The position numbers were made by a program, and so were the translations under genes. 64,000 nt of DNA from Escherichia coli (GTDB lineage Bacteria; Pseudomonadota; Gammaproteobacteria; Enterobacterales; Enterobacteriaceae), in assembly GCF_029227855.1 (NCBI RefSeq), contig NZ_CP074356.1. One strand, 5' to 3'. The notes beneath the pieces are model-generated. The model had not been told where the DNA came from and made no database searches. It saw only the letters and a list, made by a program, of their open reading frames with translations. Numbering within the stretch: the first letter of the stretch is position 1; the number at the start of each line of letters is the position of its first letter. This document shows, in pieces, positions 2,995-63,486 of the stretch.

Positions 2995-6049
<3,055 letters not shown>

Positions 6050-25620: not shown

Positions 25621-27894
25621 ATGGGAAGCCCCTCTCTGTATTCTGCCCGTAAAACAGCCCTGGCGTTGGCAGTCGCCTTAAGTTTCGCCTGGCAAGCGCC
25701 GGTATTTGCCCACGGTGGTGAAGCGCATATGGTGCCAATGGATAAAACGCTTAAAGAATTTGGTGCCGATGTGCAGTGGGACGACTACGCCCAGATCTTT
25801 ACCCTGATTAAAGATGGCGCGTACGTGAAAGTGAAGCCTGGTGCGCAAACAGCAATTGTTAATGGTCAGCCTCTGGCACTGCAAGTCCCGGTAGTGATGA
25901 AAGACAATAAAGCCTGGGTTTCTGACACCTTTATTAACGATGTTTTCCAGTCCGGGCTGGATCAAACCTTTCAGGTAGAAAAGCGCCCTCACCCACTTAA
26001 TGCGCTAACTGCGGACGAAATTAAACAGGCCGTTGAAATTGTTAAAGCTTCCGCGGACTTCAAACCCAATACCCGTTTTACTGAGATCTCCCTGCTACCG
26101 CCAGATAAAGAAGCTGTCTGGGCGTTTGCGCTCGAAAACAAACCAGTTGACCAGCCGCGCAAAGCCGACGTCATTATGCTCGACGGCAAACATATCATCG
26201 AAGCGGTGGTGGATCTGCAAAACAACAAACTGCTCTCCTGGCAACCCATTAAAGACGCCCACGGTATGGTGTTGCTGGATGATTTCGCCAGTGTGCAGAA
26301 CATTATTAACAACAGTGAAGAATTTGCCGCTGCCGTGAAGAAGCGCGGTATTACTGATGCGAAGAAAGTGATTACCACGCCGCTGACCGTAGGTTATTTC
26401 GATGGTAAAGATGGCCTGAAACAAGATGCCCGGTTGCTCAAAGTCATCAGCTATCTTGATGTTGGTGATGGCAACTACTGGGCACATCCCATCGAAAACC
26501 TGGTGGCGGTCGTTGACTTAGAACAGAAAAAAATCGTTAAGATTGAAGAAGGTCCGGTAGTTCCGGTGCCAATGACCGCACGCCCATTTGATGGCCGTGA
26601 CCGCATTGCTCCGGCAGTTAAACCTATGCAAATCATCGAGCCTGAAGGTAAAAATTACACCATTACTGGCGATATGATTCACTGGCGTAACTGGGATTTT
26701 CACCTCAGCATGAACTCTCGCGTCGGGCCGATGATCTCCACCGTGACTTATAACGACAATGGCACCAAACGCAAAGTCATGTACGAAGGTTCTCTCGGCG
26801 GCATGATTGTGCCTTACGGTGATCCTGATATTGGCTGGTACTTTAAAGCGTATCTGGACTCTGGTGACTACGGTATGGGCACGCTAACCTCACCAATTGC
26901 TCGTGGTAAAGATGCACCGTCTAACGCAGTGCTCCTTAATGAAACCATCGCCGACTACACTGGCGTGCCGATTGAGATCCCTCGCGCTATCGCGGTATTT
27001 GAACGTTATGCCGGGCTGGAGTATAAGCATCAGGAAATGGGCCAGCCCAACGTCAGTACCGAACGCCGGGAGTTGGTGGTGCGCTGGATCAGTACAGTGG
27101 GTAACTATGACTACATTTTTGACTGGATCTTCCATGAAAACGGCACTATTGGCATTGATGCCGGTGCTACGGGCATCGAAGCGGTGAAAGGTGTTAAAGC
27201 GAAAACCATGCACGATGAGACGGCGAAAGATGACACGCGCTACGGCACGCTTATCGATCACAATATCGTGGGTACTACACACCAACATATTTATAATTTC
27301 CGCCTCGATCTGGATGTAGATGGCGAAAATAACAGCCTGGTGGCGATGGATCCGGTGGTAAAACCGAATACTGCCGGTGGCCCACGCACCAGTACCATGC
27401 AAGTTAATCAGTACAACATCGGCAATGAACAGGATGCCGCGCAGAAGTTTGATCCGGGCACGATTCGTCTGTTGAGTAACCCGAACAAAGAGAACCGCAT
27501 GGGCAATCCGGTTTCCTATCAAATTATTCCTTATGCAGGTGGTACTCACCCGGTAGCAAAAGGTGCCCAGTTCGCCCCGGACGAGTGGATCTATCATCGT
27601 TTAAGCTTTATGGACAAGCAACTTTGGGTAACGCGTTACCATCCTGGCGAGCGTTTCCCTGAAGGCAAATACCCGAACCGTTCCACTCATGACACCGGTC
27701 TTGGACAATACAGTAAGGATAACGAGTCGCTGAACAACACCGACGCCGTTGTCTGGATGACCACCGGCACCACACATGTGGCCCGTGCCGAAGAGTGGCC
27801 GATTATGCCGACCGAATGGGTACATACTCTGCTTAAACCATGGAACTTCTTTGACGAAACGCCAACGCTAGGGGCGATAAAGAAAGATAAGTGA
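25621..27894 (+). CDS. tynA: Periplasmic copper/topaquinone primary amine oxidase
   Basis: 757 aa from MGSPSLYSARKTALALAVALSFAWQAPVFA (signal peptide); copper amine oxidase fold. Confidence 0.92.
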   Translation: MGSPSLYSARKTALALAVALSFAWQAPVFAHGGEAHMVPMDKTLKEFGADVQWDDYAQIFTLIKDGAYVKVKPGAQTAIVNGQPLALQVPVVMKDNKAWVSDTFINDVFQSGLDQTFQVEKRPHPLNALTADEIKQAVEIVKASADFKPNTRFTEISLLPPDKEAVWAFALENKPVDQPRKADVIMLDGKHIIEAVVDLQNNKLLSWQPIKDAHGMVLLDDFASVQNIINNSEEFAAAVKKRGITDAKKVITTPLTVGYFDGKDGLKQDARLLKVISYLDVGDGNYWAHPIENLVAVVDLEQKKIVKIEEGPVVPVPMTARPFDGRDRIAPAVKPMQIIEPEGKNYTITGDMIHWRNWDFHLSMNSRVGPMISTVTYNDNGTKRKVMYEGSLGGMIVPYGDPDIGWYFKAYLDSGDYGMGTLTSPIARGKDAPSNAVLLNETIADYTGVPIEIPRAIAVFERYAGLEYKHQEMGQPNVSTERRELVVRWISTVGNYDYIFDWIFHENGTIGIDAGATGIEAVKGVKAKTMHDETAKDDTRYGTLIDHNIVGTTHQHIYNFRLDLDVDGENNSLVAMDPVVKPNTAGGPRTSTMQVNQYNIGNEQDAAQKFDPGTIRLLSNPNKENRMGNPVSYQIIPYAGGTHPVAKGAQFAPDEWIYHRLSFMDKQLWVTRYHPGERFPEGKYPNRSTHDTGLGQYSKDNESLNNTDAVVWMTTGTTHVARAEEWPIMPTEWVHTLLKPWNFFDETPTLGAIKKDK

Positions 27895-50635: not shown

Positions 50636-52080
50636 TGCAGGAAATCTATCGTTTTATCGACGATGCGATTGAAGCCGATCGCCAACGTTATACCGATATT
50701 GCCGATCAAATCTGGGATCATCCAGAAACACGTTTTGAAGAGTTCTGGTCAGCGGAGCATCTGGCTTCGGCGCTGGAGTCTGCAGGCTTCACCGTTACCC
50801 GCAACGTAGGCAATATCCCAAATGCCTTTATTGCTTCGTTTGGTCAAGGCAAACCGGTTATCGCCCTGCTGGGGGAATATGACGCCCTGGCAGGTTTAAG
50901 TCAGCAAGCAGGTTGCGCGCAACCTACATCCGCGACGCCCGGTGAAAATGGTCACGGTTGCGGACACAATTTGCTGGGAACCGCCGCCTTTGCCGCAGCA
51001 ATAGCCGTCAAGAAATGGCTGGAACAATATGGGCAAGGCGGCACGGTGCGCTTTTATGGTTGTCCTGGCGAAGAAGGCGGCTCGGGTAAAACGTTCATGG
51101 TCCGCGAGGGGGTATTTGATGATGTGGATGCGGCACTCACCTGGCACCCGGAAGCCTTTGCCGGTATGTTCAATACCCGCACGCTGGCAAACATTCAGGC
51201 ATCATGGCGCTTTAAAGGGATCGCAGCACATGCCGCGAATTCCCCTCATTTGGGACGCAGCGCCCTTGATGCCGTAACGTTGATGACCACTGGCACCAAC
51301 TTCCTCAACGAACATATTATTGAAAAAGCGCGCGTACACTATGCCATCACAGATAGCGGCGGGATCTCGCCCAACGTGGTCCAGGCGCAGGCAGAAGTGC
51401 TTTATCTTATCCGCGCCCCCGAAATGACCGATGTGCAGCATATTTATGATCGGGTCGCCAAAATCGCCGAAGGTGCGGCATTGATGACCGAAACCACGGT
51501 TGAATGCCGCTTCGACAAAGCCTGTTCCAGTTATCTCCCGAATCGCACCTTAGAAAATGCCATGTACCGAGCCCTATCCCATTTTGGTACCCCGGAATGG
51601 AACTGCGAAGAACTGGCTTTTGCGAAACAAATTCAGGCTACGCTCACCCCCAACGATCGGCAAAACAGTCTGAATAATATCGCTGCAACCGGTGGCGAAA
51701 ACGGCAAGGCTTTTGCACTACGTCATCGTGAAACGGTACTGGCGAATGAAGTCGCTCCATATGCCGCCACCGATAACGTGCTTGCGGCATCAACTGATGT
51801 CGGCGACGTCAGTTGGAAACTGCCTGTTGCCCAGTGTTTCAGCCCCTGCTTTGCCGTCGGTACCCCGCTACATACGTGGCAACTGGTTAGCCAGGGGCGA
51901 ACATCTATTGCTCATAAAGGAATGCTGCTGGCGGCGAAAACTATGGCAGCAACCACACTTAATCTCTTCATTGATTCAGGGCTATTGCAAGAATGCCAAC
52001 AAGAGCATCAGCAAGTTACGGACACGCAACCGTATCACTGCCCTATCCCGAAAAACGTGACACCGTCACCTTTAAAATAA
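50635..52080 (+). CDS. abgB: p-aminobenzoyl-glutamate hydrolase subunit B (M20 peptidase)
   Basis: 481-aa ORF; start overlaps abgA stop. Confidence 0.9.
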   Translation: MQEIYRFIDDAIEADRQRYTDIADQIWDHPETRFEEFWSAEHLASALESAGFTVTRNVGNIPNAFIASFGQGKPVIALLGEYDALAGLSQQAGCAQPTSATPGENGHGCGHNLLGTAAFAAAIAVKKWLEQYGQGGTVRFYGCPGEEGGSGKTFMVREGVFDDVDAALTWHPEAFAGMFNTRTLANIQASWRFKGIAAHAANSPHLGRSALDAVTLMTTGTNFLNEHIIEKARVHYAITDSGGISPNVVQAQAEVLYLIRAPEMTDVQHIYDRVAKIAEGAALMTETTVECRFDKACSSYLPNRTLENAMYRALSHFGTPEWNCEELAFAKQIQATLTPNDRQNSLNNIAATGGENGKAFALRHRETVLANEVAPYAATDNVLAASTDVGDVSWKLPVAQCFSPCFAVGTPLHTWQLVSQGRTSIAHKGMLLAAKTMAATTLNLFIDSGLLQECQQEHQQVTDTQPYHCPIPKNVTPSPLK

Positions 52081-56525: not shown

Positions 56526-56768
56526 GATGTAATCCTTGTGCAGACAAATTTCTTGTTACCTAAACGCAACAATACCATGACATTTCACCGTTGTCTGCTC
56601 TGAAAACCTCACCTCTTAGCTGGATTTACAATCAACGCATTGATTAGTTAGCTAATGTTGCTACTTCCTTCCCTGACTATTGATGATCTGAATGAATTGT
56701 CGCGGTAAAATAGCCCCGCCAGGGGTTTCCGGCATGACGACAATTATCTGGAGGAGCCTGATAAAACA

Positions 56769-59521: not shown

Positions 59522-59551
59522 AAATGCAAACAACTTCCATCAAAAAAGTGA
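59522..59551. repeat. 30-bp motif, copy 1 (aaatgcaaacaacttccatcaaaaaagtga), in the pgrR-mppA spacer
   Basis: 28 of 30 identical to copy 2 at 62633-62662. Confidence 0.7.
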
Positions 59552-59800
59552 CAAAGGAAGCATCAAATGTTTTAAGTATCAATATATCAAATCAGATTTA
59601 GTGTAAATAATAGTCTCCAAAATGCGGTAAAGCACATAGAACTCCGAACACTACGTTCGGGCTTCGCACGTTCAAACCCGTTTTCGGTATCATAATCAGC
59701 ATCTGTCGCCATTGTACGAAGAATAAAAAATGACCAAAACGTTGAAAGGAACTGAGAATACGTTAAGAGAAGAATTAAATTAATGTATCAGCAAGTAGTG

Positions 59801-60700
59801 CTAAACAGCACCTTTATACTTCAGCCTATCTATAAATAATGAGAATGCCGAGCCAGCATGTCGACGGTGTGGATAGTACAGGTGATAACCGGGTAAATCT
59901 GGTGTGAATTTATCCAAAACACGTATCAGTTTTTTTTCTTTAATAGCCCGCTCAACCTGATCATAAGGTAGATACGCCAATCCATGCCCATCAATTGCAG
60001 CATCAATGATCAGGTCTATCGTATTCAGTAAAAGCTGACCTTCCATGCGAACACGAACTTCACGTCCACCGCGTATTAATCTCCAGCGATTTGCTGTACC
60101 CGATGTGGGAAGATACAAATTAATTGCCTGATGATCTATTAATTGTGACACTGACGTTGGAGCACTTCGACGAGAAAAATAATCCGGTGAACCAACAATA
60201 GCCATTGGTATATCTGGCCCGATTCGAATGGCGATCATATCTTTATCCATCTCCCCACCCAGACGGACGCCTGCATCAAAACGTTCAGAAACGACATCGG
60301 TCAAACCATAATCAATGGTAAGCTGGATATCAATTTCAGGATGCGATTTCAGGAATGTGCGCATAGCTGGTAACAATATCGTTTTTGCTGCATGTTCTAC
60401 AGTAGTAATACGTATTGTCCCGGATGGGCGGTTCTGCAGATCGCTCAGGGATGTCAGGGCAGAATCTATGTCATGCAACATAGGGCCAAGAACAGACAAA
60501 AGATGCTCGCCCGCTTCAGTGGGTACAACGCTGCGCGTGGTTCGCGTCAGAAGCCGCAATCCCAATCGTTCTTCTATACGGCGCACTATCTGGCTTAAAG
60601 CTGACTGCGCCATGCTCAGGCGGGCTGCTGCGCGAGTGAAGCTACGCTCCTCTGCAACGACGACAAACGCCATCAGATCAGCGATTTCTTCACGCTTCAT
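59801..60700 (-). CDS. pgrR: LysR-family regulator of murein peptide degradation
   Basis: 299-aa ORF with N-terminal LysR HTH; divergent from ycjY. Confidence 0.88.
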   Translation of the reverse strand: MKREEIADLMAFVVVAEERSFTRAAARLSMAQSALSQIVRRIEERLGLRLLTRTTRSVVPTEAGEHLLSVLGPMLHDIDSALTSLSDLQNRPSGTIRITTVEHAAKTILLPAMRTFLKSHPEIDIQLTIDYGLTDVVSERFDAGVRLGGEMDKDMIAIRIGPDIPMAIVGSPDYFSRRSAPTSVSQLIDHQAINLYLPTSGTANRWRLIRGGREVRVRMEGQLLLNTIDLIIDAAIDGHGLAYLPYDQVERAIKEKKLIRVLDKFTPDLPGYHLYYPHRRHAGSAFSLFIDRLKYKGAV

Positions 60701-60724
60701 TCAGTATCTCCATACAATCTATTA

Positions 60725-60738
60725 ATCATTTAAATGAT
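60725..60738. promoter_or_regulatory. Perfect 14-bp palindrome ATCATTTAAATGAT in the pgrR / ycjY divergent promoter region (candidate LysR-type operator)
   Basis: Palindrome of LysR T-N11-A type 25-40 bp upstream of the pgrR start; direct repeat GGTCTAATCA x2 immediately adjacent. Confidence 0.4.
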
Positions 60739-60837
60739 AGGTCTAATCATAATTTAGGGTCTAATCAACTTAATGATCAATATCTATAGTGATATCACCA
60801 ACCGCCAAAACGAACCGACAACTCCATGAGGAACGGA

Positions 60838-61758
60838 ATGATGAATAATAAAGTCAGCTTCACTAACAGCAATAATCCAACCATCTCTTTGTCTGCAGTG
60901 ATCTATTTCCCTCCAAAATTTGATGAAACCCGTCAGTATCCGGCAATTGTGGTATCTCACCCAGGTGGGGGCGTTAAAGAGCAAACGGCCGGAACCTATG
61001 CCGAAAAACTGGCGGAAAAGGGATTTGTCACTATTGCTTATGACGCATCTTATCAAGGTGAAAGCGGCGGCGAGCCGCGTCAGTTAGAAAACCCATACAT
61101 TCGTACTGAAGACGTCAGTGCCGTGATTGATTACCTGACAACGCTTTCTTATGTCGACAATACCCGAATTGGTGCGATGGGAATTTGTGCCGGTGCAGGA
61201 TATACAGCCAATGCTGCAATTCAGGATCGCCGCATCAAGGCCATCGGTACTGTTAGTGCGGTCAATATTGGTTCGATGTTCCGTAATGGTTGGGAAAACA
61301 ATGTGAAATCTATTGATGCCCTACCATACGTTGACGCGGGTTCAAACGCCCGAACCAGCGATATTAGTAGCGGAGAATACGCCACTATGCCACTGGCACC
61401 AATGAAGGAGTCCGATGCGCCGAACGAAGAACTGCGTCAGGCCTGGGAGTATTACCACACCCCTCGCGCGCAGTATCCAACAGCACCGGGTTACGCTACT
61501 TTGCGCAGCCTTAACCAGATTATTACCTATGATGCTTACCATATGGCGGAAGTGTACCTGACTCAGCCGATACAGATTGTGGCGGGCAGCCAGGCAGGGA
61601 GCAAATGGATGAGTGACGACCTGTACGATCGAGCATCAAGCCAGGATAAACGCTATCACATTGTTGAAGGCGCAAACCATATGGATCTTTATGACGGCAA
61701 AGTCTATGTGGCTGAAGCAATTTCAGTATTAGCTCCGTTCTTTGAGGAAACTCTGTAA
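60838..61758 (+). CDS. ycjY: Alpha/beta-hydrolase (dienelactone hydrolase-like) protein
   Basis: ORF 60826-61758 (310 aa); start at MMNNKVSFTNS chosen to give about 306 aa, uncertain by a few codons. Confidence 0.85.
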   Translation: MMNNKVSFTNSNNPTISLSAVIYFPPKFDETRQYPAIVVSHPGGGVKEQTAGTYAEKLAEKGFVTIAYDASYQGESGGEPRQLENPYIRTEDVSAVIDYLTTLSYVDNTRIGAMGICAGAGYTANAAIQDRRIKAIGTVSAVNIGSMFRNGWENNVKSIDALPYVDAGSNARTSDISSGEYATMPLAPMKESDAPNEELRQAWEYYHTPRAQYPTAPGYATLRSLNQIITYDAYHMAEVYLTQPIQIVAGSQAGSKWMSDDLYDRASSQDKRYHIVEGANHMDLYDGKVYVAEAISVLAPFFEETL

Positions 61759-61828
61759 TGAAACATATTCAAATCCGTAATAGTGATATGGCCTGGCATA
61801 TTGCTGCCAATAATCTGGGAAAAGTTTC

Positions 61829-62467
61829 ATGAAAAATGTACTGATTCTTGGTGCTGGCGGTCAGATAGCCCGCCATGTGATTAATCAACTGGCAGATAAA
61901 CAAACCATTAAACAAACTTTATTTGCCCGTCAGCCAGCAAAAATCCACAAACCCTATCCCACTAATAGCAAGATTATTATGGGGGATGTACTGAATCATG
62001 CAGCACTGAAGCAGGCCATGCAGGGACAGGATGTTGTGTATGCCAACCTTACGGGGGAAGATTTAGATATTCAGGCAAATTCAGTGATCGCTGCGATGAA
62101 AGCCTGTGATGTTAAACGTCTGATCTTTGTTCTTTCCCTCGGTATTTATGATGAAGTTCCAGGAAAATTTGGCGAATGGAATAATGCAGTTATTGGTGAG
62201 CCCCTAAAACCATTCCGCAGGGCTGCGGATGCAATTGAGGCTTCTGGACTGGAATATACAATTCTTCGCCCTGCCTGGCTGACTGATGAAGATATTATTG
62301 ATTATGAGCTTACCTCACGCAATGAACCATTCAAAGGTACGATCGTATCACGTAAGAGTGTCGCAGCATTAATCACAGATATCATCGATAAACCTGAGAA
62401 ACACATTGGTGAGAATATAGGCATCAATCAACCCGGGACTGATGGTGATAAGCCCTTCTTCATGTAA
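61829..62467 (+). CDS. NAD(P)-binding Rossmann-fold protein (NmrA/atypical SDR-like), intact 212 aa
   Basis: MKNVLILGAGGQIARHV (GxGxxG/A NAD-binding motif); lies between ycjY and mpaA where K-12 is annotated with ymjC/ymjD fragments (from memory). Confidence 0.8.
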   Translation: MKNVLILGAGGQIARHVINQLADKQTIKQTLFARQPAKIHKPYPTNSKIIMGDVLNHAALKQAMQGQDVVYANLTGEDLDIQANSVIAAMKACDVKRLIFVLSLGIYDEVPGKFGEWNNAVIGEPLKPFRRAADAIEASGLEYTILRPAWLTDEDIIDYELTSRNEPFKGTIVSRKSVAALITDIIDKPEKHIGENIGINQPGTDGDKPFFM

Positions 62468-62632
62468 ATCAATTATATAGCTACCATCGTACTGTACTAT
62501 GTGCAGTACGATTTATTAAACTTATTAAGGTGAACTGATCAATCAGATGCGATTAACATGTGTAGAACCAGTAAGAATAAAATACGCCATGTATATAACA
62601 TTACGACAATTCTAATATCTGCACATCAATGA

Positions 62633-62662
62633 AAATGCAAACAACTTCCGGCAAAAAAGTGA
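62633..62662. repeat. 30-bp motif, copy 2 (aaatgcaaacaacttccggcaaaaaagtga), about 100 bp upstream of mpaA
   Basis: 28 of 30 identical to copy 1 at 59522-59551. Confidence 0.7.
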
Positions 62663-62757
62663 TACAAGATAGATGACATAGCGTTGAAGAAAAGGATTTG
62701 ATAATCCGCAAAATTTGCACAACACTGCCTGTAATACTTCCTGAACCAGAGACGATC

Positions 62758-63486
62758 ATGACCGTAACTCGCCCACGCGCCGAACGCGGCGCATTTCCGC
62801 CCGGAACAGAACATTACGGACGTTCATTATTGGGCGCGCCGTTAATCTGGTTTCCTGCCCCTGCAGCCAGCCGCGAAAGTGGTTTGATTCTGGCTGGCAC
62901 TCACGGTGATGAAAACTCTTCGGTCGTCACGCTCTCCTGTGCTCTGCGAACGTTGACACCTCCTTTGCGCCGTCATCATGTGGTGCTGTGTGTGAATCCT
63001 GACGGCTGCCAGTTGGGGTTACGGGCCAATGCTAATGGTGTGGATTTAAACAGAAACTTTCCGGCGGCGAACTGGAAGGAAGGTGAAACCGTTTATCGCT
63101 GGAACAGCGCCGCTGAAGAACGTGATGTCGTATTGCTGACAGGTGACAAACCTGGCTCCGAACCTGAAACCCAGGCGCTGTGCCAGCTTATACACCGCAT
63201 TCAACCTGCCTGGGTGGTCTCATTCCACGATCCGCTGGCCTGTATTGAAGATCCCAGACACAGCGAATTAGGCGAATGGCTGGCCCAGGCGTTTGAATTG
63301 CCTCTGGTAACCAGCGTCGGTTATGAAACACCTGGCTCTTTCGGTAGTTGGTGTGCAGATCTCAACTTGCATTGCATCACCGCAGAGTTTCCACCCATCT
63401 CCTCCGACGAAGCCAGCGAAAAATATCTCTTTGCGATGGCAAACTTGCTGCGCTGGCATCCTAAAGATGCAATTCGCCCGTCGTGA
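62758..63486 (+). CDS. mpaA: Murein peptide amidase A (gamma-D-Glu-meso-DAP amidase, M14 family)
   Basis: 242 aa from MTVTRPRAERGAFPPG; zinc carboxypeptidase-like HGDE motif (GTHGDENSS). Confidence 0.88.
   Translation: MTVTRPRAERGAFPPGTEHYGRSLLGAPLIWFPAPAASRESGLILAGTHGDENSSVVTLSCALRTLTPPLRRHHVVLCVNPDGCQLGLRANANGVDLNRNFPAANWKEGETVYRWNSAAEERDVVLLTGDKPGSEPETQALCQLIHRIQPAWVVSFHDPLACIEDPRHSELGEWLAQAFELPLVTSVGYETPGSFGSWCADLNLHCITAEFPPISSDEASEKYLFAMANLLRWHPKDAIRPS

Follow-up and report, generated by a model that had tools for sequence, protein, structure and literature searches.

Which bases of the short spacer between pgrR and the divergent gene ycjY does the PgrR regulator read, and do they serve one promoter or both? 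An earlier note on this DNA had proposed that a perfect palindrome in the spacer is a PgrR operator controlling both pgrR and a ycjY-mpaA operon. We analysed the whole 64,000-nucleotide stretch of Escherichia coli DNA in which the locus lies (hereafter the window), and compared the spacer with its counterparts in other genomes and with published binding, expression and transcription start data. The binding of PgrR to this region and its regulation there are already published, so the novelty is low, and the map of three boxes described below adds detail rather than a discovery.

The pgrR/ycjY locus and its common spacer

The region at 59700–62600 has a 100% identical counterpart in E. coli JNEC-KY178, and 5243 of the 5426 complete genomes of this species match it. 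The RefSeq gene order is mppA (−), pgrR (−), ycjY (+), a gene for an SDR oxidoreductase (+), mpaA (+) and ycjG (−). The product of pgrR (also called ycjZ; 59801–60700, − strand; an open reading frame annotated in RefSeq) is a member of the LysR family: it matches the Pfam families PF00126 (HTH_1) in its N-terminal part (E = 1.6e-21) and PF03466 (LysR_substrate) in its C-terminal part (E = 1.5e-35), and the solved chains closest to it are LysR regulators. On the + strand, ycjY (60838–61758) encodes an alpha/beta hydrolase according to RefSeq/PGAP annotation and matches to Pfam hydrolase families. It is followed by the second gene of the ycjY unit, an intact gene for an SDR-family oxidoreductase (61829–62467, + strand; annotation and Pfam) that is represented in K-12 by the ymjD/ymjC remnants, and then by mpaA (62758–63486, + strand; RefSeq annotation).

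The two genes pgrR and ycjY diverge from a short common spacer, an arrangement also present in 10 other genomes and on one plasmid. The spacer, which has a G+C content of 34%, had been given a length of 125 bp; it is 137 bp long (60701–60837), because ycjY begins at 60838 (MMNNK...) in both the PGAP and the K-12 annotation. The longest ycjY reading frame opens at an upstream in-frame ATG at 60826, but Serratia proteamaculans has ATA at this position and the codon lies partly over the invariant Shine-Dalgarno sequence GAGGA, and the real start is the one at 60838. That Shine-Dalgarno sequence (60828–60832, + strand), where AGGAA is invariant, lies 5 nt 5′ of the annotated ATG. At the other end of the spacer is the pgrR leader (60701–60720, − strand) with a Shine-Dalgarno sequence of its own (GGAG on the − strand), which is not conserved. 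A comparison of the spacer leader with curated RNA families returned a chance match only (21 bits against a threshold of 66, E = 0.72) and no RNA element.

Dyads and repeats within the spacer

The perfect 14-bp palindrome ATCATTTAAATGAT is indeed present at 60725–60738, as is the second, 10-bp palindrome GTGATATCAC at 60789–60798, where it overlaps the −10/start region of ycjY. The two copies of the decamer GGTCTAATCA, at 60740–60749 (copy 1, + strand) and 60758–60767 (copy 2), are also exact as the earlier note had it, but they are separated by a gap of 8 bp, with a period of 18 bp, and not by 10 bp. Its description of the palindrome as a T-N11-A type was inexact: the dyad is ATC-N8-GAT, in which the symmetric pair T60726 and A60737 forms T-N10-A, and since the palindrome is of even length a symmetric T-N11-A is impossible. 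The dyad is nonetheless perfect, ATCA-N6-TGAT. Members of the LysR family tolerate variation in the spacing of the recognition dyad, and the missing T-N11-A core lowers the literal claim while leaving the operator claim intact.

The palindrome lies within an invariant block, ATTAATCATTTAAATGATA (60721–60739), which we call box 1. Two further boxes were absent from the earlier note. Box 2 (60746–60759) is a degenerate dyad, ATCA-N6-(T/A)GGG, centred 21 bp from box 1; its left half-site is the AATCA of decamer copy 1, and for its right arm most orthologues, like K-12, have TGGG where this strain has AGGG. Box 3, ATCAACTTAATGAT (60764–60777), is a second ATCA-N6-TGAT, centred 39 bp from box 1.

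The frequency with which such features arise by chance was estimated from 5000 dinucleotide shuffles of the 137-bp spacer. A palindrome of at least 14 bp appeared in 75 shuffles, a direct repeat of at least 10 bp in 65, and the two together in a single one. The spacer holds 8 ATCA/TGAT 4-mers against 3.4 in the shuffles, of which 26 reach 8, and these half-sites repeat about every 10 bp across about 57 bp. Over the whole window ATCA-N6-TGAT occurs 7 times against 1.5 expected, two of the occurrences being those 39 bp apart in the spacer. Perfect 14-bp palindromes are not unusual at this scale (3 observed, 4.9 expected from shuffles), and palindromes of at least 10 bp arise in 17.6% of the spacer shuffles, so that GTGATATCAC is unremarkable. 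We regard the functional case as one decided by conservation, to which the shuffle counts are secondary.

Similar elements occur elsewhere in the window. The other perfect 14-bp palindromes, GGTAACGCGTTACC and GGTTGCGCGCAACC, lie at 27627–27640 and 50911–50924. A pair of ATCA-N6-TGAT matches 81 bp apart (3665–3678 and 3746–3759) falls inside an open reading frame on the − strand (3611–3955) and probably consists of chance matches in coding sequence. The divergent ynaJ/ynaI spacer, about 4 kb from pgrR, contains CAATCAACGCATTGATTA (56629–56646), with an ATCA-N6-TGAT dyad that resembles box 3; this spacer is not among the published SELEX targets of PgrR (PMC5934670).

Conservation of the spacer across genera

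A genome scan with PgrR recovered the divergent pgrR/ycjY pair at 85–88% protein identity in Citrobacter, Kluyvera, Pseudocitrobacter, Serratia and Shimwellia, and at 99% in an Escherichia species. The E. coli spacer was aligned with nine orthologous spacers from outside Escherichia, drawn from Citrobacter, Kluyvera, Serratia, Shimwellia and a Klebsiella plasmid. Between E. coli and the other genera the fourfold-degenerate sites of pgrR are 32–40% identical, which amounts to saturation. Read from the pgrR side, identity within the spacer is 21% in the pgrR leader (60701–60720), 99% in box 1 (60721–60739), 77% in decamer copy 1 and the gap behind it (60740–60757), 98% in decamer copy 2 (60758–60767), 76% in the right part of box 3 (60768–60783), 100% in CTATAGT (60784–60790; 11 sequences) and 57% in the ycjY leader (60791–60825). 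The conserved core has a sharp left edge at 60721, 10.5 bp from the axis of the dyad, and the sole substitution within the palindrome falls in its central spacer.

The other elements are kept to differing degrees. In box 3 the left arm and the TTAAT that accompanies it are invariant, and the right arm varies among genera (TGAT, TAAT or TGGT). In other genera decamer copy 1 reads AGTCCAATCA (8 of 10), so only Escherichia has the decamer as an exact repeat. Of copy 1 only G..C.AATCA is conserved, G.C.AATCA persists in both copies, and the decamers are better read as AATCA half-sites combined with −35 hexamers. The short palindrome GTGATATCAC is not conserved, the corresponding sequence being GTTATCCCAT, GTGTGATCAC or GTGGTATCAC in other genera. 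When AATCA-N6-TNAT was searched for in the orthologous loci of about 5.9 kb, the matches were essentially boxes 1 and 3 alone. Within E. coli, spacer polymorphisms among the strains sampled are confined to 60714, 60751, 60756, 60806–60807 and 60818, with none in box 1; the K-12 locus for which PgrR regulation is published has the same genes, and its spacer differs at five bases, all outside the conserved blocks.

Three more distant homologues (L020, L010 and L026, with 65%, 58% and 50% identity, respectively) keep a divergent alpha/beta hydrolase gene, and their spacers cannot be aligned with that of E. coli. The recognition helix QSALSQIVRR is almost invariant in the distant PgrR homologues, and a looser box, TnATCA-N6-TnATA, stands beside the ATG of the regulator in two of the three; the spacer of L026 contains no such box. 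L010 also has a perfect 14-bp palindrome of different sequence, located 36 bp beyond the box. As support for a PgrR-type site, these boxes are suggestive only. The neighbouring genes differ in relatives of 53% and 49% identity, and a word-index search for intermediate orthologues that might carry compensatory changes in the dyad gave only relatives of at least 87% identity.

Predicted promoters of pgrR and ycjY

Consensus scans place a pgrR promoter on the − strand, with TAGACC (60763–60758) and TATCAT (60739–60734) separated by 18 bp and a start at about 60727, inside box 1. The identical pair of hexamers was predicted in PMC3946193. The best match on the + strand, TAATCA (60762–60767) and TATAGT (60785–60790) separated by 17 bp, is the predicted ycjY promoter, with a start at about 60797. 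The two predicted −35 hexamers share 2 bp within decamer copy 2, and the ycjY −10 hexamer sits in the invariant CTATAGT. A different ycjY promoter, ATGATA-19-TCTAAT, was given in PMC3946193; its −10 has C in place of the key A at position 2, and we count its spacing as 20 bp. On sequence grounds TAATCA-17-TATAGT appears to fit ycjY better, and it is invariant. Both start points are predictions from consensus matches. The Cappable-seq, SMRT-Cappable-seq and Kim 2012 data contain no transcription start in the spacer, and box positions of −65, −45 and −27 relative to ycjY therefore derive from these same matches.

The starts near here in the Kim 2012 data, with coordinates converted to those of the window, lie inside pgrR and at mpaA only. 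One of those inside pgrR, at window position 60159 (+), is antisense to the gene and is assigned to ycjY, 667 nt upstream of it; the other, at 59953 (−), is in the sense direction and is assigned to mppA, 489 nt upstream.

These predictions bring up a reading in which the conserved blocks are simply −10 and −35 hexamers, the symmetry of box 1 is incidental and PgrR makes its contacts elsewhere, for example at GTCYAATCA units. The hexamers do fit: TAATCA and TATAGT on the + strand, and TATCAT and TAGACC on the − strand (ATGATA and GGTCTA when read on the + strand), stand at correct spacings, promoter hexamers rank among the most conserved positions, and a 14-bp palindrome is no rarity at the scale of the window. 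What makes the reading unlikely in our view is the left arm of the palindrome, TTAATCATTT, which the conserved block takes in (60724–60728) and which is invariant although it lies downstream of the predicted pgrR −10, where change is tolerated; the next 20 bp are 21% identical. In addition, ATCA-N6-TGAT recurs 39 bp away, and related boxes accompany the distant homologues.

Binding and regulation by PgrR

The ycjY/ycjZ spacer is a genomic SELEX target of PgrR, whose regulon is listed as ycjY-ymjDC-mpaA (PMC5934670). Shimada, Yamazaki & Ishihama 2013 (Genes Cells 18:123), as related in PMC10505187, place a PgrR site on the pgrR promoter region, and footprinting of PgrR on the spacer is reported. 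The DAP-seq peak of PgrR at the pgrR promoter stands 5632-fold over background, comparable to LacI at lac. Knock-down of pgrR raised the activity of the pgrR promoter (log2 +0.97), and negative autoregulation was borne out by titration (PMC10505187). PgrR is likewise reported to repress the ycjY operon; on pgrR knock-down the ycjY promoter rose weakly (log2 +0.60, +0.28 and +0.34), with none of these changes called significant. Upstream of ycjG, a reported PgrR target, there is no box with at least 7 of 8 matches. The central proposal of the earlier note, a PgrR operator for both genes, is upheld by the LysR identity of the protein, by the published binding and regulation at the spacer and by the invariance of the palindrome; what we infer is that PgrR protects the palindrome itself.

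It is very unlikely that the main reader of the palindrome is some other factor, be it H-NS or another nucleoid protein acting on such A+T-rich DNA, UlaR, or RNA polymerase carrying sigma-E. Knock-down of hns raises the ycjY promoter (log2 +0.88), and one binding flag comes from a source other than DAP-seq or SELEX; UlaR gives a 57-fold DAP-seq peak, and knock-down of ulaR raises the ycjY promoter in LB; the RpoE holoenzyme produces a strong SELEX peak on the spacer (intensity 17.2; PMC5493296). PgrR, however, gives a DAP-seq signal about 100 times as strong as UlaR does, pgrR is accompanied by the motif on a Klebsiella plasmid and in distant genera, and nucleoid proteins need no base-perfect conservation. 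A sigma-E promoter was rejected despite the SELEX peak, as its consensus, GGAACTT-N15-17-TCnnA, finds no match on either strand of the spacer, even at 4/7 in the −35. That the features are functionless accidents of AT-rich intergenic DNA is scarcely credible, for although 14-bp palindromes number 3 against 4.9 in window-wide shuffles and 10-bp ones are common, near-perfect conservation at a divergence where synonymous sites are saturated contradicts it, as does the joint occurrence of palindrome and decamer repeat in only 1 of 5000 shuffles, and it would hold for GTGATATCAC only.

Several other regulators were compared with the spacer by eye and set aside. CRP requires TGTGA-N6-TCACA, and the spacing found here is wrong for it; the arms of a Fur box, TGAT-A-ATCA, have the opposite order and spacing; and the FNR site, TTGAT-N4-ATCAA, is the reverse arrangement. 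E. coli alone has a box 3 that fits the IHF sequence WATCAANNNNTTR with a single mismatch, the match being lost in other genera.

A three-box operator model

The palindrome is very probably the main PgrR site between pgrR and ycjY, serving both promoters. We also consider it likely, with somewhat less assurance, that 60721–60790 is a shared control region run by PgrR, in which box 1 is the primary site and boxes 2 and 3 are secondary. In this model the 70-bp core would be the common control region of two back-to-back sigma-70 promoters with PgrR as the repressor. Box 1, with its perfect ATCA-N6-TGAT, would be the high-affinity recognition site, and because it covers the predicted pgrR −10 (TATCAT) and the start near 60727, bound PgrR would shut off its own promoter. 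Boxes 2 and 3, which share the AATCA left arm and appear weaker, would be the distal and the promoter-proximal secondary contacts of a PgrR tetramer. Together with decamer copy 2, box 3 would lie across the two overlapping −35 hexamers, and its occupation may keep RNA polymerase off the ycjY promoter. The decamer repeats would be by-products of half-sites and −35 hexamers and not a separate element, while the second palindrome, GTGATATCAC, seems to have no conserved role and is probably due to chance. We infer from sequence the exact bases contacted by PgrR, both start points and the tetramer contacts at boxes 2 and 3.

In classical LysR-type promoters the recognition site lies near −65, and the activation sites are found at about −45 to −25. 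Measured from the predicted starts, the centres of the three boxes lie at −65.5, −44.5 and −26.5 of ycjY, and box 1 extends from −11 to +3 of pgrR, so that the positions would correspond to the usual arrangement of recognition and activation sites. The region resembles the classical divergent promoters of BenM/CatM, CbnR, OccR and AtzR in having a divergently transcribed regulator, a strong dyad over the regulator's own promoter and weaker sites that reach the −35 of the target; the total span of about 57 bp and the half-sites about 10 bp apart are also alike, as judged from the predicted starts. By this analogy the pgrR/ycjY region appears to have a standard LysR-type layout. It differs from the classical cases in that its dyad is T-N10-A rather than T-N11-A, and in that PgrR is reported only as a repressor. 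The nod-box motif of LysR regulators, ATC-N9-GAT, has the same inverted ATC...GAT arms, whereas the PgrR dyad is one base shorter in its spacing and the regulator is unrelated.

Some observations weigh against the operator model. Promoter hexamers alone would also account for the high conservation seen in the right half of box 1 and in decamer copy 2, and the dyad is one base short of the canonical T-N11-A. The weak response of ycjY, the boxless upstream region of ycjG, the drifting right arm of box 3 and the boxless spacer of L026 point in the same direction.

The ycjY unit, mpaA and a possible mobile cassette

The operon of ycjY and mpaA assumed in the earlier note is doubtful in this strain, where the two genes are separated by the intact SDR gene, a hairpin and a promoter belonging to mpaA. 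The hairpin (62486–62512, + strand), a 12-bp stem followed by UUUAUU (−16.2 kcal/mol, z −3.96), is a likely terminator of the ycjY-SDR unit, and the 290-bp spacer before mpaA holds that gene's own promoter, with a start mapped in K-12 (Kim 2012). In K-12 the hairpin is missing because of a deletion of about 665 bp that begins within the SDR gene and reaches as far as the mpaA promoter; here, in contrast to K-12, both the intact SDR gene and the hairpin are kept. Of the 5426 complete E. coli genomes, 2942 contain the deleted segment (about 0.63 kb, holding the 3′ part of the SDR gene and the hairpin), and the operon structure is therefore polymorphic. The spacer is found in 5224 of the 5426, and about 44% of the spacer-carrying genomes, K-12 among them, are without the SDR/hairpin segment.

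A 37-nt direct repeat, 86% identical between its copies (AAATGCAAACAACTTCC.. and CAAAAAAGTGA..), lies at 59522–59558 and 62633–62669, upstream of mppA and mpaA, the two murein-tripeptide genes. The mpaA copy corresponds to the promoter region mapped in K-12 (Kim 2012). In the mppA copy, which faces away from mppA and toward the 3′ end of pgrR, the −10 has been lost. The repeat may be a shared regulator site or the relic of a duplication.

The E. coli cassette of pgrR, ycjY and the SDR gene lies between mppA and mpaA. A homologous cassette with about 78% nucleotide identity is carried by conjugative IncF plasmids such as the Klebsiella pneumoniae plasmid pKp_SB61170_1 (3202–7877), where a LysR regulator, two alpha/beta hydrolases and an SDR adjoin an IS110-family transposase gene, without mpaA and with the same operator core. 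Homologues of about 88% protein identity are distributed patchily across many enterobacterial genera, and this distribution, together with the plasmid copy, suggests a mobile unit. It can be taken further, though only tentatively and to our minds with a fair amount of doubt: pgrR-ycjY-SDR might be a self-contained, horizontally mobile cassette whose three-box operator responds to a small molecule by switching between boxes 3 and 2, the connection with peptidoglycan recycling might be largely secondary, and strong control of mpaA might occur only in strains without the segment of the SDR 3′ part and hairpin.

Implications

The three-box operator model provides a map that can be tested at the level of single bases, as it specifies which 14 bp to mutate, two weaker boxes and the probable hexamers of both promoters; the second palindrome can be ignored. 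The current understanding of LysR regulators is unchanged by it. The ycjY-ymjDC-mpaA operon of the textbooks applies to genomes without the SDR/hairpin segment and not to the strain analysed here, and this polymorphism bears on how PgrR is to be linked to the recycling of murein peptides.
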